A stretch of 64,000 bases of DNA from Rhizodiscina lignyota. Lineage: Eukaryota. Made by a program: the position numbers and the translations under genes. The stretch lies in assembly GCA_010015805.1 (NCBI GenBank), contig ML978122.1, positions 2,886,453 to 2,950,452 on the forward strand. Direction: 5' to 3'. The stretch's first letter is position 1. Every line of letters starts with the position of its first letter. The notes below the pieces were generated by a model. It was not told where the DNA came from, searched no databases, and saw only the letters and a list, made by a program, of their open reading frames with translations. Of this stretch, positions 32,160-51,327 are shown piece after piece.

Positions 32160-33581
32160 GCACCAGTAGAGGCGTTGGTAGAGCTATTCGTAGTTTCTTA
32201 GATACACGGCCGTGCCCATGTTCAATCTGTATAAGGGTATTCGGGGATATGCTCAATTCGCACGTCGGATCGCTGGTGATACGCCGGTGGTGGTGAGGAT
32301 CTGGGTGCAAAGTTTCTCGAATGTTGCGCGCTACATCCTTAATAAGAAGCGGACGTCTGTCAGACATGAATACAGCTGGTAGAGCCCCTATGTTAATGCG
32401 CTTGTCCCTGTCCATGAAGGCCAAAATCCCAAATACTCGTTGAGTCGGTCGGACAGCGGGCTTAGGTCAAAGCCTACGTAGAATGTAAAAGTAAGAAAGG
32501 GAAATGTGGTATTAGGAAGTGAAAGCAGAAAAACAACAGCGCCCTTCAGGTTAGAAGGAAAATGTTGTAAACCGTGGCAACACAAGGCCGGTGCACCGAG
32601 AGGATTACGTTGTTGACTATATATTTAATTTCAGATGTACATCTCTCACCATTCGGTCATTGCACATTGGCCGAGTGGTAAATAATCTTTGTGCGTTTCG
32701 AGATCACCTGAAAAGAACATCTACACGTTAACCTCTTACAGAGCGCTTGAGCAACGCCACTATCCCACTAGTCAGAGGTTTCGCATCCCAGAGGGGGTGC
32801 CTTTTTTTTTCTCTTTTTTTTTCTTCTTATTTTTTTCTCGTCTTCATTCTGCAAGTGCACTAAAGAAGCAGTGAGAACTTACTTTGTGTCAAGCCGACGG
32901 AGTACACTAAGACCGATATTGATGAAGCTGGCGAACTGATGGCCTCCAAAAGGGGCAGGCTACGCTTCCGGCTCGGCAACATCCAGCTGGAATTTGAGGA
33001 ACCCATTAACGAAGATTCTGTGGTGCTAGATGCCCAAGAAGACCAAGCAGTTAGCTGCTGGAATGCAGTCGTCGGGATTGTCGATGGCTTTGCATTGCTC
33101 CTTCGGTCACCATCGGCAGTTGTGTCACAGCGGTAAAGTTCAACCTCTGACCGTCCGCAAGGTGGAAGCTGAGTGGGTATGCTTGATATATGCGTGTGAG
33201 CCGTAAGTTGAGAGCCAGCATATAATCGAATCGAAACTCGACCACCGTGGGCAAGGTAGGAGCTAAGGCAGCACTTCTAACTAAATCGATGCTCAACCGA
33301 CCTGTGCAAAGTGTTAGTATATACTCCAACAAACGTACAACGGAACCTTCTGAGATACTCTCGCTTACTTTGAAGAACGAGAGATGGCCGCCCCTGGGCA
33401 TTACAGCTTGCCGGGCGGTCAACTACTTTCACATCCTCGAACCTAACACTATGGACTCGAACCTCAGTTACTATTGCCCATGCCTCAATACCAAACCTTC
33501 CGCCGGCCCGTGCGCCATCTATATAAACAACGCTAGGCCGCAGCACACAAACCTTCTTACACTGAACAAACGCTAACCAAA

Positions 33582-34071
33582 ATGGCACCATACATCCCGC
33601 TACTCCCGCTACCCTCATACGCCGCACTGCTCAAGAAGGTATGCATAGTCGCCTGTCACCACTCTATTGCATGAACAGAATAACACCTTATAGGCACGAA
33701 GGGCCTTCAAACACGTCAGTTATCGTGCCGGCGACGCGATCTGCACGGCAATCATCCACGACCCCCGCACACCTCTCCCCATCCTCGTCGGCGCCCTCCT
33801 GCTGGCGGCGGAGATGAACAAGCTGAACGACGGACCGAGTCACGTCTCGGCGGCGATGGAAGTGGTCGACCATATGGAGGCGGAGGGCATGACGGACGAG
33901 GCGAAGATCTGGCGCGGTCGTGTCGAGGAGGTGAACAACGAAGTGAGGAGGGTGGTGGACCCGATTGACGAGCTGCTGGGCACGGTGGAAGAAAAGCAGG
34001 GAGAAGCGGTCCGCCTACGACTCCTGGGCATCCGCCCTACACTCGGCCCACGTCGCTCCCAGCTTTCATAG
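33582..34071 (+). CDS. small helical hypothetical protein (2 exons)
   Basis: TATA (CTATATAAA, ~33519); MAPYIPLLPLPSYAALLKK, intron GTATGC...TAG, then ARRAFKHVSYRAGDAICTAIIHDPRTPLPILVGALLLAAEM, continuing into the 33814-34071 ORF. Confidence 0.7.
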
Positions 34072-34314
34072 TCTGCCAAAAGGTTATCGGTCGGGGAGTA
34101 CAGTGTTTACGAAAGAAAACGCCGGTATATGTATTGCAATGAAAATTGAATTGGGTGGGATACAGCAAAAGCCGCACTGCAATGCTAGGTGTATAAATGT
34201 GAACCCAACGCCACAAATGCGTCCGCTCGAGAGACAAGCGCACGAGATATCTAAGGTGAAACTGAAATTGCATAAAAGGAAAGGTCGCTCATGCCTGCCA
34301 AGATACAAATCCAT

Positions 34315-35586
34315 CTAGTCCTTGCCCAGTCTCCTCCTTAGATTCCTTGTCCTCCGCATTAGCTTCTTATACTTGTGCTTCTTCATCTTCAGCTTCCTTT
34401 GTCTCTTTACGCTAATTAGTAGCATGTCATTCTCCTTCTCCTGCCTTCGTTGCAAGCTCTCCTGCTGCCGTAACCACATCCGCTGCATAAACGGCTGCTT
34501 CCATTTGATGGTCTCGCGAGACAACCCAACGTCCTCCATCTCTGTACTTGACTCCGGCTCTTCAATTACCGTGGAAGGATAGGTACGCATTCTCGACGGC
34601 GTGGGAATCTGTACTATGGGAGTGTTCGTTGCTGCATACTGCTTGTAGCCATGGGCGTTGGTGATTTCGGTTACAATGATCGTTGTGCTCCATGACTTGC
34701 GCTTGATGGTGGCGCGGAACGACTTCTTCTTCGACTGAGCAGGAAGGAGAGTTGAGTGGAGAGAGTTAGACTGCTCTTGAGTCGTAGATTGGGCAGGAAG
34801 CTTTCTCGCCTGCTGCGCGGAACCTAGGGTTCCTGGTTCGGGCCTGGGAGGAGGCTGGAAAGGTATTCTTCTTGCAAGATGTTGATTCACAGTTTGTTCA
34901 TTCAGCGCCGGATACTGGAATGGAGCTCCATCAAGGTGCACAGCGCCGCTGTTACTGCCGACAGATTGAAGGGCTTGGGAGCCATGGCCCTGGGAGAGGG
35001 AGGAGAGGTTGTCGAATGTTTGGAGGGCTAGTCTCATTTGACTGGAGAGATTCCGTTGTTTCGTGAGCTCTGCGGAATCCTGCTGCGGGTCGAAGAGTCT
35101 GTCGAAGGATTGGCTGGGAAGAGGAAGGCCAGTAGTTACGCTGATGGGTCGGTGTTGGGAGAAGAAGCACGAGAGCGCGACATCTAGCTCAAATTAGATT
35201 ACGCTGGGTATCAGCAACCCGATCTATATCATACCATGATAATCAACATCCTGCGTCGATGGGACACTCGGGAGATCCGGTAATGTCTCTTCTGCCCTAG
35301 ATTTCGACCGTTTTGCGATAATTCTCCCACGTTGTACCAAGCCTTTTTGCTCTTGCTGCCCGTGTTGTTGGGAAGGCAAAGAGCCTCTCACAACCTTTAT
35401 GCCATCGGGCGATCTCGACGTCTTCGAGCTCGAATGCCGTCTTTGGTGAGTCCTCGGATTATTGCTGAGTGGCCTTGTTGTCGCCGCCGCAGCTCTTGCA
35501 GCTGCCGGACAAGTGGAGGAGGCGACGGCGGGTGAGGTTGCTGGCCATGTTGCTCGGATAAAGCGACCGAGAGAAGAAGATATCAT
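34315..35586 (-). CDS. COX24: mitochondrial small ribosomal subunit protein mS38 / Cox24 (DUF1713)
   Basis: N-terminal presequence-like RRHSSS, LPSVPSTQ, FFSQHRPIS after the intron (~35233-35186), C-terminal SVKRQRKLKMKKHKYKKLMRRTRNLRRRL. Confidence 0.9.
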
Positions 35587-36299
35587 GGCCAGAGGGGGAA
35601 TAGGGTATCACGAGTGACGAAGAGGTTGAATTGACGTCGACTCTTCGGGTGATAAGATGGGCGGCTCGTCGGTAGTTCTTCCTCGACCTGCTGATCTCTT
35701 CGCCGCCGCATCGGAATGAGCCGTTCGTTTGCATTACATAAGCACCGCCTGATGTCCGAACGTTCACGCCGTTACATTTATCTGCCTAGCGCATCCACGT
35801 GAAACATTATTGACGAAAATTCACTAAGTTCTAAGAGCACTTCCTTCCGATGAACTGTGCTGAAGTTATGCGTTTGCGTGTAGCCAAAGATTGTAAGATA
35901 GCAATGGCAGGTAGCCTGCCAACTACTCTATCGAGCTTGTATTAAGGTACTATTGGCAACACAAGCCGATTTCGACAGGGAGGAAGCTCCAACCAGTAAT
36001 GGAGGGCGTATTGAACGGTTCGCAGGAGCTCTCTTTCTGTTTACCGGAGCCAGTTAAAATTTGCATGACCGTAGCCTCGTCTCATCCGTATTCACTGTTT
36101 CATTTGCTCCACCAAGGACCAACATTCCGAAATCAGACCAATGACTGCCGCAGCTATTATGCAGAAGCCTGCATGCTTTACTCGGTTCATCCGCACAAGG
36201 CTGAGATGTATGGCGATGGCGCCTGACAGCCTTGCCTCTCAACCTCACATCAATTTTTAAAAGTCATCTTCACGATCCCAAAAGTTGTTCACAGTATAT

Positions 36300-37393
36300 G
36301 TTCTTCCTTTCTTGTGTCTTCCTATGTCCGGGCTAGAGATTAACCAGGCCTTGCATCCTTGAAAGACGAGAACGGGAACACACTGCTTTTTGTAAGTTCC
36401 GTTGTTACTAGCCTCGGAAGTTACAGAACCTAACTATATTATTTTAGGCAGTGACTGCTTGTATGACACATCCTTTCTACTCATATGTCCAGGATGAGAT
36501 TTTCGACACTGCATTTTCACACATTGTGAACGCCCTTGTGCGTTATGGTGTTGATAAAGATGCATGCGTCTCCGGAACGTATCCGTGGGAGCTTAAGCCA
36601 CGCTCTTCCTTGGAAAAGGCTGTAGACTTTGTATTAAACCCTGTCAACAGAGGTCTCAGGCCAGATGTCGTTCTTTTAGAAGGGGGATGTTGTCCGCCAC
36701 CATCGTCCACGAGTTTTGAAAGTAGGGAGAACGGGGTTGACATCAAACGCATACTTCCTATCCTAGGACAATATCCAGATTATGAAGAAGGTGACTATTT
36801 TCATGATATTGACTAAGTTCATCATCTTGCTGAGTCTTTGCAGATCTAGGTTTTGGACCATTGGAAATTGCAACTTTGCAAAGGTCAGAAACGAAGGTCC
36901 AGATGTTGCTAGCAATGAAAGCTCCACCAGACGGTACGATGTTATCGCATAACATATCAACAAACAGAGTGGATCTAGAGCTTTGGGAATTAGACAAAAT
37001 TCCATCTACTCCATTGGAATGTGCCGTAGGATGGCAGAAAGGAATGGGACTTCTCCTTCGAGCAGGTGCGAACGGATTCTTCGCCATAGGCAGAGCAGTC
37101 GATTCATCCGATCTGGAATCATTAAAATTGCTATTGGAAAGCAACTGTCCACTTTTCGGTCATTTAGGCCCAGACGACCCATACGGAGACCATCCTCCCC
37201 CACTAATAACTAACCCTAGTGTGGATGATTGGGATCATTGGACTGAGGCGTTGTTCTACCGATTCGCAAGCTTTTGGCATCGTGAAGATCCTTATCTCGC
37301 CTTTTGCATTGTGCGAGCCGTGGTTGATCGCCGTACGAGGCTCAAAGAGCTTGCAGAGTCTTACTTGGATGCACATGATCAGCGTGCACTGGG
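36300..37393 (+). pseudogene. N-terminal half of an ankyrin-like/Cys-motif protein gene (truncated; 5' end approximate)
   Basis: DENGNTLLF, intron 36392-36447, ...DYEE, intron 36792-36843, DLGFGPLEIATLQRSE, TPLECAVGWQKGMGLLLRAGA, VVDRRTRLKELA...DQRALG; family resemblance stops abruptly at ~37393. Confidence 0.7.
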
Positions 37394-37887
37394 CAGTCGA
37401 AGACTACGATTGTCGGTGATCAAGGCAAAAATCCTCTGCGACCAACGATTCTATCCATACAAATGCGACCCTAACTGCTTCGAGTCGGATCGCGAAATCG
37501 GTAGATTGCAAGAGTGGTATTCCTTCTATATCATCCGGACCACGCCTTGGAATACATCCCATCCGTGGGTTCATTCGAACCGGTGCGGTCTTCAATGCAA
37601 AGATAGAATTACTATCGGTGTGTCATATGCATCCAGGCTCAGCACCGCACCGATTGATGTGGATTATTGTTTGTGTTGGTGAGAAAGGGCGTGCTATGTC
37701 CAACAATCACAAAACTAGCTGCTCAATACACCAAACACAGGCACCTACCCCCTGAATGTTTCATGACCACAGGCAGCAGAGATATGCAGTGCACTCACCT
37801 ATAAATTTCTCTCGAATCTAAATCCCACTTCCTTTCTCTTTGTCGTTCGATCTCTTGAATTCTCTCTACCAACCCCCTCTTGAAGCC

Positions 37888-38533
37888 ATGGATACTCTCG
37901 ACGACATCACCTTCGCCTCAGCAGAGCACAAAGCACACTTCGTCAAGAAGATGGACGAGTTTGCCATGCGGTGAGATCTTTTACAACATCAAATCAGTCA
38001 GAGATAGCGCTACTTCTTAATCCAACCCCAGCGGCAAAGGCATCCTCTTCGCCCTGCCTCCAGGAAACGAGTACGGTGACTACGCGCTGTACCCTGGCTA
38101 CACCTGGAGCTCCGCCCAGGCCATGAGCTGGCACGCCAGGCGGACCATCCCAGCGCAGCTCCGCGACCTCAATCCCTCCATGAAGCTGCCAACCATCTTC
38201 AAGTTCGTCCACGCCCTGCTACCCGCCGGCGGGCTGGACTACCGCATCACGACGGCGAGGTTCGAACAATTCGATGCGGCGCCTCGCGCCTCGCTGGCCC
38301 TGCTTCCGGCCGCGAATCACGACGCGCTTGTCCTCAGAAGCGACATCACCATCGGCGAGGCGCAGAAGAGGGCGTACCGCAACGGCCTCATCCCGGACGA
38401 GGACGCGCCGACGTTCGACGAGTGCCTGAAGCCGCACGCCTACCAGGACCACTACGTGGAGATGCGGTTCCGGAGGGGCACGCCGATGCCTCGAGTGGAC
38501 GAACTTCTTTGGAGCGCTGGAGGTTTTTATTGA
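37888..38533 (+). CDS. hypothetical protein (2 exons)
   Basis: TATAAA at ~37800; ATG 37888 MDTLDDITFASAEHKAHFVKKMDEFAMR, intron GTGAGA...CAG, then GKGILFALPPG, in frame with ORF 38123-38533; strong C/G third-position bias. Confidence 0.7.
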
Positions 38534-39286
38534 GTGGGGGTGGAGGGGCCATGGGTCGGAAGTGACGAACAAAGTTGCAAGGGCGTGGCGTTAGAAGCGG
38601 CGGGAGGGAGGTGGCGGAAGGTTAGAAGGTTCTTTCAGGCGCAAGGAAGTAGAATTTGGATACAGCAATTGCGGCAGATAATCGATGCTCGCACATCAAG
38701 ATCATAGACGTGCCGAGCCTTCTCTTCAATTCTAATGGATGCAAGCGTGTCGTGAACGTGATATGCAAAGCGAGTTCTCTTGTTCCAGCACACAACCTTC
38801 GTAGATGGCTGCCTTCTCATAGGATATCGCGCTTGCGCGCCATGAACACGGTCCGTGGCAAAGCTTCTCTGGTTTAAGCTTTTAAACTTCGCGATTGTAG
38901 CGGACAATTCGTCCCCCTTAACACAGTCAGAGGGTGTTATCTTCGCTATAGCTTCTGTAACACCAGATTGTATATTAGCTTTTCTTCCCGCTCGTAGATT
39001 GTTCTCTCTTTCAATCAACCCAGTCAACACACCTTCCCGGGCTTCATTAGTGTCGTACTCGAAGGAATACAAATGCACCTACGCCAAAAACACACGAACA
39101 GCTAGACGACAAACGGAGTTCGGTGCTTCGAGTGGAGCGCAATTACGACACGCATTACGCGATCAAAACACACTGCTACGTACGCGAGCAATCAGAATGA
39201 AGGGAGATCTGGTGTAACTGAAAGAGCACGCAACATACAGAGTATATAAGAACCTCCACTCAACCAACGACCAACCTCATCGATCC

Positions 39287-39845
39287 ATGACAATGGAGGA
39301 CCGCGAGCGTTCTGAACAACTGCGAAAAAACACCGAGATGATAATGAAATACAATCGGCAGCGACGGCTGGAAGAGGAAAAGCGAATGGACGGCATTGTA
39401 AAGTTGGTGGAGGTAAGATACAGGTCGGAAGTGTTCCGTCTGAGGGTTTTTCATTAACATGATCCAGATCGATCGGCTTTACAAAGACCAAGAGTACGCG
39501 CGGTGCGCCGACGAATGTCGTGCGACCTGGCTTGCGGTGGACGGAAACGTCGGAAAGTACCATGACAATGTCAGATTCCGAGCGATAATGCGTGCGGTGA
39601 CGGCCGCCGCTCAGCAAAGCAATTCTGCGCAAAAGACGTTCGAGGGCGTATGTGAGTACTTTAGAAAGGCGAAGGCTTTTGGTCTTATGGACATACTTGC
39701 TCCTTACATCGCCAAACAGACAGCGTCGGAGGTGGCTCAGATCATACGAATGAAGAGAGAGGTACTGACCTCTGAAGAGGCCGAAGTGTGCGAATGGTTG
39801 GATGACTTTGATTGGATGCGAGACATTGTGGACACTGAGGACTGA
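39287..39845 (+). CDS. hypothetical protein (orphan paralog B1)
   Basis: TATATAAG ~39243; exon 1 MTMEDRER...GIVKLVE; intron 39413-39467; exon 2 IDRLYKDQEY...FDWMRDIVDTED. Confidence 0.75.
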
Positions 39846-40287
39846 AAGATAGATAAGGTTCACGAACCTCGCAGACTCGTATCGACCATGAAAAGCAAAT
39901 GAGAGGTGTATCTGGCAGCTTGACTATACTCCCTATGAAAAGCGACTTCTATCTGTGAAACAATGAAGCAATCTCTCTTGCCTGGGCCAGTCCTCTACAG
40001 AGGGCTCCACAGGCGTAAAAGACACATTTTCTGTGTGTTAATGAACGCTCGTGTATCTTGAATTCGCCACGTGAAGAAACCTCTGTGTGGGAAGGTGTTA
40101 GCTGGCAACCCTGCTGTACATAAACCATTTCTCCATGGGCACTTCTTTAACCAACAACTCACGATTGTGATCCGGCACTCTACCGTCCAAACACCAACTA
40201 CAGTAGAGAATCCTCTCCACTCGAAACTAAGCGAAAAGAAACACCAATTTGATATTGAGTCAGCAGCAGAGGTTGTTGAAACTGAAG

Positions 40288-40805
40288 ATGTCGTTTGCAG
40301 ATGTCCAAAAGGTGTGGCAGGTAAGATATAACTCAGAAACATTCCATCTGTGGCTTCTCCACTGACATGGGTGATAACTCAGGTCGATGAGCTTTGCATG
40401 AACCGAAAATACGCTGAGGCCGCCGAAGGCTATCTTGAAATCTGGAACGCGGCGGAGGGCGTCTTCCCCAACGAGATCCGATTCATAGCGCTGAGGGGTC
40501 TGCTCAAGGTCTTTGCTACGGACAGCACCGCTGTGCCAGTACCCTTCAACACCCTCTGCGATTACATCGCAAAAGCGAAGCGTAATGCTCGACCGGGGGA
40601 TAGGCTTGACCTTTTAGGTACCAAGATAACGGCGGATGAAGTGGCTGAGACTGTCCAGAAGAACCCGAGTTCCAATCAGGAAGTGGAATGGAAGCACGGC
40701 TTTGACTGGAGTCAAGACTTCATCGACGCTGGCAAAGACTGGATGCGTCTCGCGAACCTCGTATGGACCGTGAAGGAGAGCAGCGAAGCCGAGCTCCAAT
40801 CCTAA
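40288..40805 (+). CDS. hypothetical protein (orphan paralog B2)
   Basis: Exon 1 MSFADVQKVWQ; intron 40321-40382; exon 2 VDELCMNRKY...FDWSQDFID; aligns with B1. Confidence 0.75.
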
Positions 40806-40852
40806 AGGCCCCAATCCTAAAGGCCCCAATCCTAAAGGCCCCAATCCTAAAG
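40796..40852 (+). repeat. 15-bp tandem repeat CCAATCCTAAAGGCC (~3.8 copies)
   Basis: Perfect repeat directly visible, overlapping the B2 stop codon. Confidence 0.95.
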
Positions 40853-41924
40853 CGGATCACCGTGATTGGACACAAGGTACTATCGATGCTGGTGATGGAC
40901 GGAAGGCTGTCAAATTTTGGATGGACTATGAAGGAAAGAAATGAGAGGACAGACGAGAGGTCTCAGAAAGGTGCATACCCCCGGTTATCCTAAGGCGGAG
41001 CGCTCGATCAGCTTCAGTTCAATAAGACACAAGACTTCGTCGAGCCCATGCAGTGACGCTGACGTCCCAGTGATGCTGTGATTTTCTGTCGTGGGAGATG
41101 GCTGGCGCTGCCATTGGCGTGCTAGCGAGTCTCAAGAATGTGCCGCTTTCCCCTTTCTGGCAAGGCCGCTGGCCACATGGTGTCTCTCCTGGAACTCGCA
41201 CCTCAACTTCTCCATCTTCACTTCACCTCCTGCCGAATACTGGAAGAGCGGCCGGCAGATTGAGGCGAGAGTCCGGCAGCCACTCCGTCTCGTTGATTGA
41301 TGCTCCGCTTCCCGTGCAAATGCCCTTCCCGTCACGCGGCGATAGCTCGTCGCCGTGTGCCATGCGCGCTGCCTCTCAACACCACACGTGCACGAGAATG
41401 CGCGCGCAAATGCCCAACACCGCCAGGGACGGAGCGTCTCGTGCGCGCATAGCGCAATAGCAGGTGCGCCGAATGCCATGATCATCCGCTGGAGCAGCCG
41501 TCTGCAATATGGCCAGAGGGCGAGAGTGCTGTTGATGCGCACCAATCAGCGCGCGCTGCCGAACTCGTGCGATCTATCTTCATTCTTTCTCGAGGCTCAG
41601 CACGCAACTGCGTAGTCAACCCCAACAGCCCTCACGCGCTCGCATTCAAACAAAGAAGCCGGCTCACTCTGTCATTTGCCCCAGTGCCCCTGCTTCCTCC
41701 GACTTTTCCTAAAATCCTGCCGCATGAGGTGGTCGTTGCTGCACCACCTGCGTCGACAAAAGCGTAGGCCTTCCCTCCTCCGTCGTATTGTCAGCCCCTC
41801 CACCCCACCGCACACGCAACACTGTGGCCATTCTGTTCCCTCGCCAATTCTCGCGCTCTGTTGTCCCTTGCATCTCATTCTCTCTCTCTCTCCCTCGTGC
41901 TAGCTCACACTACAGGATAGCACA

Positions 41925-43320
41925 ATGCGCATTGCTATCGTGGTTGAAGTCTTCCTGCCGAAGCGCGACGGCGTCACCATCACCGTCGAGCGCGTCCTCA
42001 ATTACCTTCGCTCGCAGAACCACGAAGTCCTCATTCTCGCACCTGGTGCCTCAGTTGCGACATGCGCGGGCTACGAAGTCGTGTGCGCCGGCGGCTTCCC
42101 CCTCCTCTTCTACCCCGGCCTTCGATACAACACATTCGACATCCCCATGGCTCGCAAATTGCTGGATTTCAAGCCAGACTTGATCCAGCTCTTTGATCCG
42201 ATCATGCTGGGCCTGCAGACCTACTACTTCGCGCGCTTCTTCATGCCCCGCACGCCGCTCATATATACATACTGCACAAACATCGTCATGTACACATCCA
42301 TCTTTGGCTTCCCCCAGCTAGCCAACATCTTCTGGGCTATGCTCAAGATCCAGCATCGCAATTCGAGCCTCACTCTCGTTCCGAGCGCATCCATAAAGCA
42401 CGAGCTCACATACCACGATTTCAAGGGCGCCATCACCGTTTGGCCCCGACCTGTCGACAGCCGTCGTTTCCACCCATCGAAGAGACGGGAGGACTTGAGG
42501 GTGAAGTGGTCAGGTTGCGACTTCTCAAGGCCTGTATATCCGGAGAACAAGATCATTCTGCTTTTCGTGAGCAGAATATCTTGGGAGAAGGGACTGAACA
42601 CACTGAGGTTGGCGTATGAAGGATTGGACAAATCGCGCTTCCATCTTGTCATTGTGGGAGACGGACCAGCGCGCGCAGAATTTGAGCCGGATTTCCTCCC
42701 CGGTGATGTCACATTCGTAGGCTGGCGCCAGGGTGAAGACCTCGCCGAAGCCTATGCCTCTGCCGACATGTTCATTTTCGCATCTCTTACGGAAACTTTT
42801 GGCAACGTGCTCCTCGAAGCAGCGTCATCCGGGCTTCCAATTGTTGCATGTGACGCCCTCGGCGTGCGAGATTTGGTCGTACATGGCAAGACGGGTCTTC
42901 TGGGACCTCCAGCAGACTCAGATACGATGCGACAGAACATCCTTAGAATCGCAAACGACCCGAAACTGATGACCCGAATGAGCACGGAGGCGCGAGTCTT
43001 CGCAGAGAAGTACACGTCCAAGTTCTCTTTCGACATAATTAATGAATCGTACAACACCGTATGTCTTACTACAGCATCATTAATACGTCCTTGCTTACGC
43101 GCTCAATAGGTCATGGCACAAAAAGCAGTCACGCCCAAAGCGCCCTTCCTCTTCCGATGTGTTGACCTCCTACGTCTGGCGTTCCTGAACAACCTCATGA
43201 TCATCGTAGGCCTTCTCCTCTGCGCCTATAAGATCATAAGGTATGGGAGGGCGCGGCCAATCCCAAGCCGCGATAGACCTATTTTTGCCTAGCTGTTCAC
43301 TCGCGTGTTGCATTTTCTAG
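41925..43320 (+). CDS. glycosyltransferase family 4 (GT-B; MgtA/SqdX-like); 3' end uncertain
   Basis: MRIAIVVEVFLPKRDGVT, VDSRRFHPSKR, LFVSRISWEKGL, VGDGPAR, YASADMFIFASLTETFGNVLLEAASSGLP (EX7E); intron ~43059-43109 leads to a hydrophobic C-terminal exon. Confidence 0.9.
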
Positions 43321-44332
43321 CGTTCGGGGTCTAATACCTATGGAAAGCTTTTTTGCTTAAGGGAGACATGGATCGGCGTTTACCGCACTATAATACCTAT
43401 TTGTCGCGTAGAGCGAATGAGAGCTTGATATCGTATTGTGCGAGTGCCTTGTAATTGCTGCACGTAGATACCATGCTATGTAATGAGCCTACATCATTGG
43501 GTGGGAATGAGATATCGAAATCTATCAATCGTCCATTCGGACATTTTGCCGGTTCATGCTCCTCTGCTTGAATGTCCACGTGTACTATGGTTGCCGCACT
43601 CCCTTCTATCGAAATCCCAACAGTTCGCCGACCACCTGCGAGACCCCGGATTCACGGTGCTCCGCTAATTGGACATGCATATTGCTAACCTAGTTGGGAC
43701 TGGACATCATTGGGCGCTCCGAGGTAATTTTTCCGCCATCTACGGAGTGCATGTCAAGCTCACGGTCTATTCTGACATTATCAAGCAAGTGATTAGCGAC
43801 TAGAAATCGAGCTAGAACATCTGGTGCTTGTCTTACGGCTTCTAATGCCTGGAACGAGGGCTAAGTATTTAGGATCGGTGTCTAACCGGCAATTCTAGCA
43901 ATTGATTTTAGAAAGATTATGCATCGTGGCAGCGGAGAGGCCGATGCTCGTGCTCATTACGTGAGAAGCCTTCTCTATACACGCATACATACATCCTCAG
44001 ATTTGCTCATCTAGCATTAACGATGATGGCTAATATCATCGACCGCGAAGAGACGCTATCGTAATGAGATTTGGACGAGTTGCTCATCAGTAGAGCATAT
44101 GGGAGCTGGCAGCGATACTGAATTGTCTGACGGCCAACTCCCCCAAGCGCACGCGGCACGCCTGAAGCAGCGTCTTTCGATATGTATTCAATCTCAAAGC
44201 TGTGGTACCTGAGAATGCATAGACTCTTCCAGCATTAAAGATAGTCCTCCAAAATCGCATTAGTTGGAAACATACAGCTTCGTCCGCCATTGTACTTGAT
44301 CCCGGTTCGGTATTCCTCGTTCCCGTCCGAAC

Positions 44333-45432
44333 TCAGCTTTGTGCATTCTGCTCCTCAGAAGAATCGGATGGCCGAGAAGAGAAGTCTTCTTCTTCTTGAG
44401 CTACATCGGAGGGGTCGAAAAGCTCCCGCAGGATGACCTGAATGAATTCTTCGTTTTTGTACTCCGGGCGCGGGAATACGGAGTCTTTTCTTCGGACTTC
44501 CCACCCATCCTCCCAATTCTTGACGTCCCAGTACGAAGGCCTATCCTCATTCTCTGGGAGTATCCGATCAACTTTGTTCCACCAATCATCCCAGAAATCA
44601 ATAATCGTCCCAGAATGTCTCTCAAGGGCCTGTGCATACGCCGACATGATGAGCTCCAGCTGTGCATGTGCATATGAATCCTCCGACTGCAACTCCTCGA
44701 TGTCCGCCTCATTCAATTTGAATTCCCTTTTTGTGCAACAAGTGTGAGCCATGTCTAACCGATTAAATATCTCCAGCCTGCAAGCTTCCTGATAGTGTAA
44801 TCTTGCATCATGCGGTTCCAGTTGGAATGTCTTGATCCAGTCATTCGTGACTTGACGGCCCGTAGACAGTGACAGAGTCATCGAGAAACGAGATACTACT
44901 CTCCTCTTCAAATACACATTGAGAGCAAGGCATCCTTTGGTCGAGCAGTAGCAGTTGCAAGTATCTGTCTTCAGCACTTCATTTTGTACCGCCTCAGATA
45001 ACAAGTTACCAAGCTCTGAGAAGTAGAAGTCCGGCATCGCTGTAGTAATCATGTGTAGATGAGTCCAAGAAGACGGCGTTGAGAAATACTGAATTGTTGC
45101 ACCTTTTGAAACAAGCCAGTTGAAGCGTTTCAGATGGGATCTGTCCCACCCGGGGAAATGTCCATCCCAAAAAGAACCGGTTGGTTCGATGTTATGAAGT
45201 TTATGCCAGAAAACATCAAGAGGTGTTCGTCCTTCATAGTCGAGGTCATTGATTCCATAGAAACCAGCGTCATACAAAGCCTCCATATATTCGTACGACA
45301 AATCCGGAATGTGATATACGGACATTTCTGGTCCAGGCCATAGCGATGGTGGAATAGTGACATTTTTTTTGTAATAGGGCTTGATGTACCGAAAATGCGG
45401 ATGCATCCAAGATTGGCGTTTCGAATATCCCC
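44333..45432 (-). pseudogene. C-terminal half of the ankyrin-like/Cys-motif protein gene
   Basis: GIFETPILDASAFSVHQALLQK, frameshift in an A8 run, NVTIPPSLW..SVYH..LYDAGF..D.EGRTPL..WLVSKGA..DTCNCYCSTKGC..HTCC; no credible N-terminus on this strand. Confidence 0.75.
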
Positions 45433-45737
45433 TCGCTCGAATGTCCATGTGGCCTGTCCTGAAGTCACAGTTCTGGGTAAATGTGTGAAATTTTCAAAGT
45501 CAGTGAAATTGTTTGAGAGGACTCTACGGAATATCGAATGTACGCAGCGCTAACGGTTAGCAGCCGCTGCATAATGGAAAGTTGAATAGACAGCGGACAT
45601 AGTGGCTGGAGAACCACGATGGAAAAATTTCATATTTCGTCTGTGGAGACGCTTACTACTTTTGCCTTCCACACTAATTGAGCCTCCCAAAACGCCATTG
45701 CTATGCATGCGTCCTTCCTCCTCAGCCGTGCGCTCGG

Positions 45738-46776
45738 TTAAGGGTCAAACTTCGGTGTGTATCTCTCGCACGCCTTCTCAAATTCCTCCTTCTTCTTCGC
45801 CCAGTCGGCCAGTGCCTGATATTCAGGGTGAACTTTGGCGAGCTTCTCCTTTGCAGCCTTTGCTTCGTCTACTTTCCCAAGTATGGTATCCAGCACTACG
45901 CTATTTACGAGCAGGTCTGGGTTCTCAGCATCGAGATCGCGAGCTTGTTGTAGCGCTGCCTCTGCCTCTGGCAACCGACCCAGATGCAGCTCAGCGACCG
46001 CTTGGCCGATCAGCGATTGTACCGATTGAGTAGCGGGCGCTTGTGCGAGCTCTTCAAATACGTAGTAAGCGGCTTGGTACTTCTCTCCGCCCTAAAAAGA
46101 ATGGTTAGAATTGTGCTTGTATTGCTGCCGAGACGTTAAACGCTTACCTGGCGCATGCCGACCCAGCTCTCAGCAATATTCACCAACAAATTATCCTGCG
46201 CCCACTTTCTCGCCTGTTGGGCCTCCTTATTCGCCAAATCCAGCCTATTCTGCTGTAGATGAATCTGCACAATCAGCGCAATAGCATCCAAGCTGCCCTG
46301 ATGCTTGCCCAGCACCTGCAGCGCCTCCTCGGCCATCCCAGCACCCGCTAATACAGTCCCACACAGCACCTGAACATTCACATTGTCACCGTCAGACTTC
46401 GCGAGCTCCTCCGCCGCGCTTGCATTGCCGTCGAGCGGCTTGCCGGCATGTTGGGCTTTGGAGTACTGTGCAAGAATCTGGACGGCTTTGAGGTCGGGCG
46501 TGGACTTGTTCGCGTCGGAGGAGATTTCTGAGAGGGCCTCATCGACCTGGCTCAGTGCAATTTTCGCGCGGAGTTGGAGGACGCGGGCGGGGAGGAGGTT
46601 GCTGGATGAGAGGGCGGAGGTGTCGAAGTCGATGACCTGGGCGTATTGTGCTTGGTGGAAGTAATTGTGGAGGTTTACGAGCTCTGGGAATATGGTTAGT
46701 ACTACGACTCATGGCTGAAGAAGCTAGGAGACTGTGGTTTTTGAAACTTACCCCCTTCTGCCGAGTATGGATCCAT
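45738..46776 (-). CDS. SEC28: coatomer subunit epsilon
   Basis: MDPYSAEG|ELVNLHNYFHQAQY..., HQGSLDAIALIVQIHLQQNRLDLA, WAQDNLLVNIAESWVGMRQ|GGEKYQAAYYVFEELAQ; two introns. Confidence 0.93.
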
Positions 46777-48546
46777 GATGTGTGAGGTCTCAAAATGTGG
46801 GATGCTACTCGGTCGCTCGATGGTAGAGTGAGTGAATTGCTGCAGTGACTCGGGATTTCCAAGTGACCTCTTGTATAAATTGAACGGAGCTGCGCAATTT
46901 TTGAGGAGATAATGTCACAACAATTGCTTCAATCATTCGTCCCCTTGTGGGTGATGTCGGTATTTCTGACCACGAATTACTCGGCTAAACTTCGGTTGGA
47001 CAAGCTGTCAGCATTGACAAGGTCAGATCAGTGGCTATGGCGATATGTATGGGATATCGAGAACATCATGCTCATATAAGATGTAAATTTGTATGTTGAC
47101 GATCGTATTCCATCACTAGTAGCAATTGTTTTCTGTAACCCATATCCTCGTGTCTAGTCGGTCCATTCACAGCCTCAATGATGCCGCTCGCTGGGACTCA
47201 AACCGGTTATTTTACATCTCGATCACGAATATCTGAATTTGTCCAGGGCCGTAGACACTGGAGAGTCGCGGCTTCTGGATCTCTACGGGCTCACTTATCT
47301 CACTCGTGATTGGCTCTCAAGGAAGAGCCGAGGAATTAGGGCGCTTCCTTGAATGGAATGGACGGAGAGAAACTGACAAAGAGCGGTCATTCCTAGTTCC
47401 TTGGGAAAGCCTCCAACACGGCGCCAGATAATTATGGGTTTCTCATGGAATGTAAATGGGTCTGACGACTCGAAAGCAAAATGGACAGTATCAGCGCAAC
47501 GACGTGAATTTGGAAGCAAGAGGAAACAGGAGAAATACGGGTCCTCCACAGATCGGGTAGAATGTCTAGAATTGAATAGAGTTAACCATAATGGAGAGTT
47601 GCCACCCACAATGTCCACGAAGGATGGCTGGTGGTGGCAGCACGCCTCAATGCTGCAGGCCGAAGAAGTTTTGAGCTGAGAAACCACGCGCCCCCACTGG
47701 GACGGCAGCACGGTGGCCTTCTCATAACTCATGATGCGTTGAAGGTGCGCTAGCTTCCTCGCAAGCCATGGCGAGAATCGACTATTCAGCGCTATCTTTG
47801 AAGCTTCTGCTGCTCCTTCTCCAGGTGAGGTGGTACGGAGTGCTGTCGTTACGTCGTCTTCCAAGTTTTACTTTTCGGTCTATGTAAGGGTCCAGGCTCT
47901 TTTAGGAGCCCCGGCCTCAGCCAAACAAGGGGCAGCATGAAAGCTTCCAGCCTCCCCTGCGAGGGCTTGCTCGGCAGCAGCGAAAACCTTGTCCAAACCT
48001 GGGAAAACAGGGAGCAAAGTGTGGCTGATACATCGGCTGGTGGCTGGAAGGCTAGCGAAATGAATTTGCATGTGGTCGGCGTGTCCGTGGAGAATTGCTG
48101 TCGCGTGGCAGCTGAAAGACGCGAAGACGAGACCGCTCCAATGGCAGCAAGCAGAGGACAGAGGTTGGCAATACATCATAGCGGGACGAGCGATTGGAGG
48201 CACAGGAGGCCCAATATATGCTAGTGCCTGGCTGGAGCCGTGCCGTGTGTGAGATCGGCGCAGATTCGACCACATCGCGCGCATCGACGCGCTACAAACT
48301 GCGCCGCTGGGGCTGCTGTGGTTGGCTCGCTTGCTCTCACGCCACAATACGTCACACCTTTGCTGGTGATCGGAGCAGGAATTGGGCAGGCGCACGGAGC
48401 ACCTCAGATCTGTTTAGATTGCATATTGCTTCCAACCTTGCTGCACTTCACCCTCAATCACATTCCTCCCTACGACACCCTTCTTCCTTCTTCCCTCACC
48501 CTCAATTGTTCGCCAGACAGCTACCTGAGCGTCTTTCTTCGCGAAG

Positions 48547-51327
48547 ATGTCGTGGTTGTCCTCGGTGGGCACGGGGACCAAGGTCCTACTGCCCAGAGTC
48601 GTAAGTTCTCCGCCAGCGCAATCCTGACGCCCAATTGACCGTTCCTGAAGGACCAAAACAATGATTCGAATATTGGCTCTGCGCGCTCTTCAAACTCTCT
48701 CTCTACCCTCCTGAGCACGCTTGCTCCTGTCGCCATCTTCGCCGCAGTATGGTTCGCCCTCTTCCTGCTCTTCAGGAGCAAGTTTGCTCGCAACTACAGT
48801 CCGCGTACCTTCCTGGGAAGTCTGCGGGAAACAGAACGCACTCCGAAGATGTCCAGCTCCATCTTCGGCTGGCTGGGCGACTTTTATAATATCCCGGATA
48901 CCTACGTATTGAACCATCACACGCTGGACGGCTATCTCTTCCTGCGCCTGCTCAAAATCAGCGTCGTCTGCTGCCTCGTCGGTTGTCTCATCACGTGGCC
49001 AGTCCTCTTCCCGGTCAATATAACTGGAGGAGGAGGCCATTCACAGCTGGATATGCTTACCTTTGCAAATGTCACGAACAATTACTTCAAGTACTTTGCG
49101 CACGCTGGCTGTGCCATCATCTTCTTCACCTTCATCCTCTGGATGATCACGCGCGAATCCATCTTCTATGTCAACCTCCGTCAGGCCTACCTTTTGTCGC
49201 CTCTTTACGCGAGTCGCCTCTCGTCACGCACTGTCCTTTTCACCTCGGTCCCTCCAGATTTCATGAACAAGGAGAAGCTCCACCGCATGCTCGGACCTTC
49301 AGTGCGCCGCATCTGGTTGGCAACCAACACGAAGGACCTTGACGATCTTGTTGAACGGCGTGACAAGGCCGCAATGAAGCTCGAAGCCGCCGAGACAAAG
49401 CTGATTACTTCTGCAAACGGATCGCGACTGAAGGCAGAGAAAAAGGGTAACCGTTCCTCTTCTACAGACGCAGCCATTGCCGACGGTGGAGAGTCTGGTT
49501 CTCTCGCAGGCCGCTACATCAAGCCAAAGCAACGTCCAACCCATCGCTTGAAGTTCCTCATTGGCCAGAAAGTAGATACGATCGACTGGTGCCGAACAGA
49601 GCTTCAGAAGCTGATCCCGCAAATCGATGGGGAACAGAATAAGCATAAGATTGGCGACGCCACGATGCTAAATTCTGTCTTTGTCCAGTTTGCAACTCTG
49701 TCCGAAGCTCAGGCTGCATATCAAAGCCTCACGCATCACAAGGTCTTGCAAATGGCACCGCGTTTCACTGGCATGACTCCGGGAGACGTCATTTGGTCTA
49801 ACCTCCGCATCCGGTGGTGGGAGCGTGTCATTCGCCAGTTTGCGACACTTGCAGCGGTCGTTGCATTGATTGTTTTCTGGTCTGTTCCTGTAGCCTTCGT
49901 CGGCGCTATCAGCAACGTCAACTATCTTATCAAGGAGATCCCTGCGCTTGGCTTCATCAACGACATCCCACAGGTGAGTTCCTCCGATTAATGCCAACCG
50001 TATCGCATTTGAAACTAATCATATGATAAAGGTTATACTGGGTGTAGTTACTGGACTCTTGCCTTCAATCTTGCTAGCAGTGCTGATGGCCTTGCTGCCG
50101 ATCTTTCTCCGTCTCATGGCCAAGATAGGCGGCGACCCAACGCACAGCGCGGTTGAGCTTACAGTCCAGAACTACTATTTTGCCTTCCAGGTCATCCAGG
50201 TATTCTTGGTTGCAACTCTTGGATCTGCAGCGTCTTCTGTTGTCCAGTCAATCATCGACGATCCGACTTCAGTTACGACACTGCTGGCGAATCATCTCCC
50301 GCTGTCGAGTAATTTCTACCTGTCCTACTTCGTCCTACAAGGCCTAGGTATTGTGTCGGGACTTCTTCTCGGCCTCAGTGGTCTGGTCTTGTTTTACGTC
50401 ATGGGGAAATTCTTCGACAAGACGCCACGGAAAATGTGGAAGCGCTGGATCAACCTCTCCGGGCTCGGCTGGGGCACGGTTTTCCCCATCTACACGAACT
50501 TGTTCGTTATTGCCATCTGCTATGCTGCCATCGCACCTCTGGTCTTGGGCTTTGCTGCTATCGGCTTGTATTTCTTCTATTTCGCGTACCGCTACAACTT
50601 CCTCTTCGTCTCCAACGCCGGTATCGATACGAAAGGACAAGTATATCCACGTGCATTGCAGCAGCTGTTCGTCGGGCTGTATGTCGCAGAGGTCTGCCTG
50701 ATCGGTCTCTTCGCTATTGCAACCGGCACCAGCATTGGAGCCCTCGGTCCTCTCATTCTCATGATCATCATGCTCATCGTCACTATCCTCTATCATATCA
50801 GCCTTAACGCCGCCCTTGGTCCACTTATCAAATATCTGCCAAAGTCTCTGGATGCCGAGGAGCGTAGCTTGCTGGCTGCCGAGATGGGTGTAGATATGGA
50901 GCACGCACAGGATGGGACGAACGGCATGGGCGAGAAGGGTAGTGTGACAGAGCATCAGCAGCCAAAGCACGCTGCTTCAGATCTTGGCCCGGCGCCACAC
51001 AAGAAGCCCAATTTCTTCGTGAAATGGCTACGTCCGGATGTCTACACCGACTACGCGACGATGCGTCGCCTGGTACCAAAGGAGATTGCGATCGAGTACA
51101 CGCCAGTAGTTGAAGAGGATGCCTTCTACAACCCTTCCATCACCAGTCAGGCGCCATTGCTCTGGATCCCGAGAGATCCTATCGGTATCAGCGCGCAGGA
51201 GGTGAGGGATACTGGCAAAGTCATACCGATTACCGATGAAGGTGCGAGTGTTAATGCGAAGAACAAGATCGAGTGGGACAAGGATGGCGGTCCACCTCCA
51301 ATTTATGAGCAGGGCGTCTACTACTAA
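48547..51327 (+). CDS. CSC1/OSCA/TMEM63 (DUF221, RSN1/PHM7-like) calcium-permeable channel
   Basis: YSPRTFLGSL, LDGYLFLRLL, LRQAYLLSP, SSRTVLFTSVP, DVIWSNL, YFAFQVIQVFLV, DTKGQVYPRALQQLFVGLY, PLLWIPRD; introns ~48601-48650 and ~49974-50031. Confidence 0.93.

Follow-up and report, generated by a model that had tools for sequence, protein, structure and literature searches.

Two opposite-strand halves of one gene in Rhizodiscina lignyota: a probable 8.04-kb inversion in a pseudogene with three lesions

How does a single gene come to lie in two pieces on opposite strands, and was the rearrangement that parted them also what killed it? The question is raised by a stretch of 64,000 nucleotides (here called the window) from Rhizodiscina lignyota (GenBank assembly GCA_010015805.1, 33.4 Mb in 33 contigs; contig ML978122.1, positions 2,886,453 to 2,950,452 of the forward strand, C2:2886453-2950452 in our numbering), in which a member of a multi-copy fungal family lies broken between a COX24-family gene and the gene for coatomer epsilon (COPE). 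A preliminary description, made from the sequence alone, had attributed the break to an inversion with GGG microhomology at its ends. It was found that the gene carries three lesions, each of which is enough alone to kill it; all three could be positioned directly and are present in sequenced DNA. They are best explained as those of a recent pseudogene, which probably arose when most of exon 1 was deleted, 8.04 kb were inverted within the chromosome in a one-off event and a +1 slip occurred.

P0002, a full-length homolog of 1149 amino acids, served as the reference. On the plus strand its residues 469-484, 507-604 and 598-797 are matched at 36344-36391, 36502-36813 and 36846-37394, respectively, and on the minus strand residues 801-819 and 809-1118 are matched at 45422-45363 and 45394-44414. 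The pieces meet at residues 797/798 (plus strand to 37393, minus strand from 45431), no residue being gained or lost, and homologs run across the junction with neither extra nor overlapping residues. One gene is present as two opposite-strand pieces, residues 469-797 on the plus strand and 798-1118 on the minus strand, as had been claimed; the Gly-Ile-Phe frame of the minus strand, described as opening at about 45432, actually starts at 45431. The pairing of the halves is not due to chance, because the same homologs are matched by both at E values of 1e-29 to 1e-62 and the two abut without a gap, and the 5' end of the second half is outermost, as a simple gene-splitting inversion demands. Both introns of the 5' part (56 and 53 nt) are of the GT-AG type and the exons that flank them contain no stops, while the 3' part consists of 21 and 343 stop-free codons, one stretch on each side of a frameshift. 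A spurious annotated protein of 330 residues at this locus is thereby explained: P0010 is the C-half alone.

The halves were compared against 152 family proteins, and the best full-length matches of both were P0002 and P0003 (P0010, being the C-half itself, and P0013, an N-only fragment, are not full-length comparators). Separate trees were built for each half from 31 rows, including 30 homologs selected because they match both halves. In its own tree each half is sister to the pair of P0002 and P0003, with support of 86/49 for the N-half and a Shimodaira-Hasegawa-like approximate likelihood ratio (SH-aLRT) value of 99 for the C-half in a quick tree, and neither groups with the same-genome paralogs P0005 and P0006. 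The shared best matches and these placements, of which that of the N-half is weakly supported, indicate that both parts derive from the same gene lineage and not from two paralogs. Longer homologs were also sought with the N-half alone, and none was found among 854 candidates, although a word-based search of this kind is weak evidence. Beyond the break, the frame of the N-half stays open for 96 codons (37394-37682), into DNA that would originally have lain at the other end of the segment.

The limits of the inversion can be read from the number of bases between an Arg-Arg anchor in the first part and a Pro-x-x-Leu-Trp-Pro anchor in the second. Inverting 37394-45429 in silico leaves 142 nt between the anchors, that is, 47 codons and 1 base, whereas 37394-45430, as first proposed, leaves 143 nt and is out of frame. 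One inversion of about 8.04 kb thus fits, with limits one base off those given earlier. Both anchors were found by pattern in 24 of 151 family proteins, with a spacing of 47 in 9, 51 in 9 and 44 to 54 in 6; among the best matches, P0002, P0003, P0005, P0006 and P0009 have 47. Spacing is restored wherever start and end add up to 82823, so that 37394-45429 is equivalent to 37391-45432, and zero bases were lost or added at the coding junction. Comparison of genomes usually locates inversion breakpoints only approximately; in the present case the broken gene serves as a ruler, and a single genome suffices to fix each end within a zone of six bases. Neither end carries a repeat.

With the two ends set in the register that restores the spacing, the sequence is G G G C A on the left and G G G G A on the right (minus strand); the runs are GGG at 37391-37393 (plus) and GGGG at 45432-45429 (minus). 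Six cut pairs, from 37391/45432 to 37396/45427, yield an identical protein junction. The four that fall within the three shared G lead to a single ancestral sequence with a 3-bp overlap; for 37395/45428 and 37396/45427 the protein is unchanged and the overlap is 0-1 bp. Microhomology-mediated end joining uses 2-20 bp of microhomology, often with deletion. Here the ancestral codon decides whether the overlap is 3 bp or 0-1 bp, and the junction shows no deletion; nor was there a templated insertion at the junction or an enrichment of G runs at the breaks above the window mean. The G runs that had been pointed out are present, but their description as microhomology-mediated is weak, the overlap being at most 3 bp (random joins reach 3 bp or more with P = 0.051) and a 0-1-bp cut being equally parsimonious. 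End joining of two breaks, whether or not the G runs assisted it, is consistent with the junction, which singles out no microhomology pathway.

This bears on the proposal that a GGG-driven inversion alone killed an intact gene, the deletion and frameshift being later decay. In its favour, both ends allow a 3-bp overlap without loss of a base, and a fungal rearrangement that broke genes at 3-bp microhomology has been described (PMC3302566). An overlap of this length or longer would, however, arise in 5.1% of random joins, the alternative cuts give the same protein, and the exon-1 deletion by itself ends translation at codon 13, with nothing to order the events; we consider the proposal unlikely.

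The second lesion lies at the start of the gene. The start codon at 36324 opens the only match to MSG[LVI][ED][ILV] in the six frames of the window, a motif also present in P0002, P0005, P0006 and P0007. After 36341 the next match is to P0002 residue 469 at 36344, three bases on and in a different frame. The plus-strand piece had been taken for the whole N-half; in fact, its first six residues jump out of frame to residue 469. The deleted stretch amounts to 462 residues by P0002 and 431 by P0005, and nearly all of exon 1 went with it, including the helical, possibly HeLo-like domain, the coiled coil and the beta domain. Residues 1-468 of P0002 have no match in the window, and elsewhere in the genome the missing piece was matched only at paralog loci (among the best 13 candidates with P0002 and the best 8 with an N-terminal protein). 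A match of E 0.92 on contig C11 was considered as the missing exon 1 and rejected, being a separate short open reading frame (ORF). Microhomology at the deletion junction is unreadable since the lost DNA is gone. The third lesion is the frameshift, the homologous frame switching at the A run at 45363-45370.

The preliminary description held that the inversion had killed the gene. This is not established, because the exon-1 deletion, with its stop at codon 13, and the +1 frameshift each suffice, and the order of the three is unreadable from one genome. In our judgement the prospect that the inversion was the first or joint-first lesion is at best about even and perhaps somewhat poorer. The six remaining coding stretches amount to 682 codons with zero stops, so the gene is still largely open, as had been noted, except that the C-half is read in two frames and not in one. 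When neutral substitution was simulated, a sequence free of stops had a probability of 0.10 at 3% divergence, of 0.037 at 4%, and of 0.043 at 3% with a threefold G/C bias. The absence of stops suggests that the death of the gene was recent, at less than about 3-4% neutral divergence. Of the earlier wording, recent or polymorphic, the first part thus stands; for polymorphism there is one arrangement in the only run found (see below). Repeat-induced point mutation (RIP) as a cause of decay was also considered; dinucleotide indices are flat over 35-47 kb, with no RIP-like shift.

Point changes normally outnumber kb-scale changes, yet the gene shows no nonsense change and has two kb-scale junctions only 1,050 bp apart (36341/2 and 37391-6). 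This hints at a single complex event, namely serial template switching at a broken fork or repair of clustered breaks, in which deletion and inversion together disabled a gene until then intact, the +1 slip following afterwards. It is a sub-case of the explanation preferred here, differing in timing, and is possible though less probable than separate events. Combined deletion-inversion events are a described class, and an exact 10-bp repeat lies at -30 and +18 nt of the break. That repeat, with both copies encoding Leu-Asp-Ala at a 48-nt period in the ancestral gene, is the longest inverted match near the breaks; a 10-bp match was reached by 11 of 2000 random pairs at a half-width of 50 nt, by 61 at 100 nt and by 522 at 300 nt, so that it is unremarkable at wider windows, and its role is unexplained. 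The missing templated insertion also tells against a complex event, as does the deletion junction, which is unreadable for microhomology; moreover, the locus was chosen for one rearrangement, so that only one extra large lesion has to be explained.

A far bolder version has a template-switching burst delete a putative cell-death domain and invert the rest of a live gene, the resulting null haplotype segregating with an intact allele, as at a non-self recognition locus, and locking the glycosyltransferase family 4 (GT4) gene and three orphan genes of the segment to the null allele; we regard this as very improbable.

The arrangement itself was checked in the one public run found to hold the stretch (1 of 1 found), which may be the assembly's source sample. 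Its contigs were assembled apart from the window. Contig record 3 (8,118 nt, 32708-40825, depth 152.8) spans the left break and the deletion junction, and contig record 7 (8,056 nt, 40823-48878, depth 151.6) spans the right break and the A run. Each break is crossed by more than 3 kb on both sides, and both contigs show 0 other letters and 0 gaps against the window; the deletion junction and the eight-A run are both inside the matching contigs with no difference, and record 7 has no gap at the run. The preliminary description had named three outcomes that would refute it, and none of them was obtained; as to the last, support for the uninverted order, the contigs back the present one (at about 152x). 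Hence, the arrangement is no misassembly and is present in the DNA of that run. An assembly error hiding an intact order could draw only on the possibility that the run is the assembly's own source; with separately assembled contigs across both breaks showing no difference and no other joint, and with misjoins needing repeats of which none is present here, it is effectively refuted.

The same data bear on whether the halves could still be rejoined, at the DNA level by a programmed reversible inversion or at the RNA level by trans-splicing. Both halves are stop-free, and reversible inversions that truncate a gene exist in fungi (PMC3574095). At the segment ends, however, inverted repeats are 3 bp only, and the longest match within 300 nt, of 10 bp, lies off the breakpoints, as against 250 bp in Sclerotinia. 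No alternative joint occurs among the contig records listed (8 of 10), though contigs drop rare forms; no consensus splice donor or acceptor was seen by eye at the breaks, and the paralogs have no intron there. Rejoining would also leave the exon-1 stop and the +1 shift unmended, and the probability of such a system is practically nil.

Another way to obtain the present order without one inversion would be for the C-terminal piece alone to have been inverted or moved, orphan genes A to C and the GT4 gene being inserted as a block. The inner genes do look accessory, A to C having no Pfam family and the GT4 gene a patchy distribution. Yet this would take two or more events whose ends coincide to the base. 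No terminal repeats, target duplication or transposase or recombinase ORF were seen in 30-52 kb, and neither was a dispersed repeat or transposon found at the breaks, the flanks being single-copy (35600-38000 and 43200-45800 match only themselves in the genome). This alternative is accordingly improbable. Within 500 bp of the breaks a single tandem repeat was found, at 37223-37241 (19 nt, score 31). Two further features are recorded near the breaks: a 19-nt inverted repeat with one mismatch at 36266-36284 and 37271-37289, with its first arm 40 nt ahead of the start codon and its second, 986 nt away, inside exon 3; and a short hairpin-like inverted repeat, read by eye, at 45546-45571, about 115 nt outside the right breakpoint.

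For a single inversion, the ancestral right junction would be intergenic; a second broken gene there was considered and rejected, no frame being long on both sides. Synteny was scanned in 80 metagenome COPE loci, 39 of them at least 8 kb long and the closest at most 60% identical. In one distant fungus a fragment of the same family (L062:1393-1929) lies about 8.2 kb upstream of COPE, on the other side; found in 1 of 80 loci and not in the near-identical locus L063, it was taken as chance rather than as a synteny signal.

Several points weigh against a single inversion in one gene. Neither COX24 nor GT4, nor any of the orphans, nor the right-hand neighbour of COPE recurs at any of the 80 COPE loci, and these, at identities of 60% or less, yielded no relative with the uninverted order. 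The one-step flip of the whole 8 kb would rest on the base-exact left junction and on parsimony, the ancestral right junction having no marker and the open frames across it being short on at least one side. Support in the N-half tree is weak, and the bit scores of the two halves correlate weakly (rho 0.28 over 125 proteins). Finally, the one run found may have supplied the assembly itself, in which case it is no independent isolate.

The preferred explanation, a deletion, one inversion and a slip, would run as follows. A dispensable member of a multi-copy family would have become a recent pseudogene through loss of 1.3-1.4 kb of exon 1, through the inversion and through a +1 slip in the A run, in whatever order. 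Two chromosome breaks, the left in exon 3 and the right in intergenic DNA, would have been rejoined end to end with no bases lost and an overlap of 0-3 bp, by classical or microhomology-assisted joining, from which template-switch repair would be indistinguishable. The inversion probably survived because its left break fell in a dispensable or dead gene and its right break in intergenic DNA, and it would be irreversible because there is no long inverted repeat.

Intrachromosomal inversions have been described as the main mode of chromosome change in Dothideomycetes, with mesosynteny breakpoints enriched for simple repeats within 500 bp (PMC3516569), and in Sphaerulina musiva such breakpoints were no major source of gene loss (PMC12778737). 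The present case is like these in being within a chromosome and in that the nearest named relatives of the host's GT4 and of the broken gene's family are Dothideomycetes; it is unlike them in having one 19-nt tandem repeat within 500 bp and one break in coding sequence. A closer parallel is the translocation between chromosomes 3 and 11 of Cryptococcus neoformans H99, which broke genes, shows 3-bp microhomology and was read as end joining (PMC3302566). Both are gene-breaking with a possible 3-bp overlap, and in both in-silico reversal restores the spacing of homologs; however, the genes broken in Cryptococcus have no lesion besides the break, and that event is strain-specific, whereas here there are two more lesions and no repeats. 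Of six inversions in var. grubii, five span just 2-4 genes and three break within a gene; most of the inversions lie at repeats or transposons (PMC3302566). The 3.6-kb inversion at the mating-type (MAT) locus of Sclerotinia sclerotiorum, regenerated in each meiosis through 250-bp inverted repeats (PMC3574095), is also of kb scale, truncates one gene and flips others, but no such repeat is present here and one arrangement was seen. The locus is an ordinary Dothideomycete-type inversion, resolved to the base, in a thrice-broken pseudogene. Inversions are held to drive the shuffling of gene order in Dothideomycetes, and the significance of the present one is modest.

What was the broken gene? A search with P0002 gave 752 family representatives at E 0.001. 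The family is a multi-copy fungal one with a helical, possibly HeLo-like N-terminus (labelled 'fungal N-terminal domain' in the Atlas), a coiled coil, a degenerate ankyrin solenoid from the centre to the C-terminus and a Cys-rich end; clusters of Cys and His are near-invariant. In the structure model of P0002 (mean pLDDT 69, pTM 0.53), an N-terminal helical bundle is followed by a long helix, a beta-sheet domain (345-421) and a helical solenoid. A profile search matched solved ankyrins at E 3e-17; a fold search with the model gave nothing at E 0.001 or better, ankyrin proteins being the top, weak hits, and neither model nor fold search gave an NTPase match. Among 32 long members, Pfam found ankyrin families in 5, PF17111 in 4 (weakly), SesA in 1 and NACHT or NB-ARC in none, and a Walker A pattern occurs in 2. 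Fungal NOD-like receptors (NLRs) are defined by a central NOD (PMC4986451), and PF17111 has been called HeLo-like (10.1101/2022.03.16.484565). The family resembles NLRs with a HeLo-like or SesA N-terminus as described in these two sources in its weak PF17111 and SesA matches, its ankyrins, its several paralogs and its broken copies; unlike them, it has a beta-sheet domain and Cys/His clusters in place of NACHT or NB-ARC. Judged by sequence and model, it appears to have NLR-type ends and yet not to be an NLR, as it has no central NTPase. Among the papers listed by a literature search, which included NLR papers, no functional description could be tied to this architecture, and a role in non-self sensing can be put forward only tentatively.

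Five paralogs in the genome (on C10, two on C6, on C12 and on C17) are colinear on one strand, and that on C10 has one open frame through the junction region. The C6 paralog near 1.627 Mb (L011:3951-4400) has two in-frame stops near its 3' end, and the C12 paralog has a TAG, a possible stop. Such decaying paralogs fit birth-and-death turnover, in which the family loses members; the family is large, yet little can be learned of its function from a dead copy. The closest named relatives of the broken gene are in Bathelium and Trypethelium (Dothideomycetes). The features of the locus are collected in Table 1.

Table 1. Positions of the broken gene, its lesions, the breakpoints and the surrounding genes in the window
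Feature	Positions	Strand	Remarks
Start codon and first six codons	36324..36341	+	family-type N-terminus; start frame stops at codon 13
Deletion junction	36341..36342	+	about 430-460 codons (1.3-1.4 kb) of exon 1 gone
Remaining 5' part of gene	36344..37393	+	P0002 residues 469-797
Structure of 5' part	exon 1 end 36344-36391, intron 36392-36447, exon 2 36448-36790, intron 36791-36843, exon 3 to break	+	
10-bp repeat, copy 1	37364..37373	+	30 nt before break
Left breakpoint zone	37391..37396	+	GGG then C, A; spanned by contig record 3
Inverted segment	37394..45429	.	8,036 bp; limits slide together by a few bases; orientation read from the split gene alone
Orphan gene A	37888..38533	+	ORF 38021-38533; start read from sequence
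Orphan gene B	39287..39845	+	ORF 39444-39845
Orphan gene C	40288..40805	+	tandem paralog of B
GT4 glycosyltransferase gene	41925..43292	+	PF00534 E 6e-32, PF13439 E 5e-18; 3' end read from sequence
3' part of gene	44333..45431	-	P0002 residues 798-1118; degenerate ankyrin repeats and Cys-rich C-terminal domain; stop 44333-44335
Run of eight A	45363..45370	-	one base above homolog spacing; +1 frameshift 22 codons into 3' part
10-bp repeat, copy 2	45402..45411	-	18 nt after break in ancestral gene
Right breakpoint zone	45427..45432	-	GGGG then A; spanned by contig record 7
COX24-family gene	34315..35549	-	left neighbour, outside inversion; PF08213 E 5e-12; start read from sequence
Coatomer epsilon (COPE) gene	45738..46778	-	right neighbour, outside inversion; PF04733 E 1e-27

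Within the segment, orphan A has no Pfam match and one 33% identical paralog on contig C3; its G+C content at third codon positions (0.84) is well above that of its neighbours (0.41-0.69). Orphans B and C share 29-30% identity (BLASTP E 3e-11) and a similar intron region (repeat D2); neither has a Pfam family, and the Atlas matches of B are all under 0.9. A perfect 15-bp tandem repeat of 3.8 copies (40796-40852) lies over the stop codon of orphan C and breaks the run's contigs. Among the 120 matches listed for the GT4 protein, only two are close fungal relatives (71-72%), the next being at 38-48%, a class whose named members among the matches listed are from Ktedonobacteria and Mucorales; the nearest named relatives are from Coniosporium and Aulographum (Dothideomycetes). 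Its patchy spread may reflect horizontal acquisition, and in the GT4 tree it stands on a long branch with no clear donor.

No tRNA was found by ARAGORN within the window. A short multicopy element at 32706-32845, where contig depth reaches up to 686, nevertheless resembles a tRNA-related fragment.

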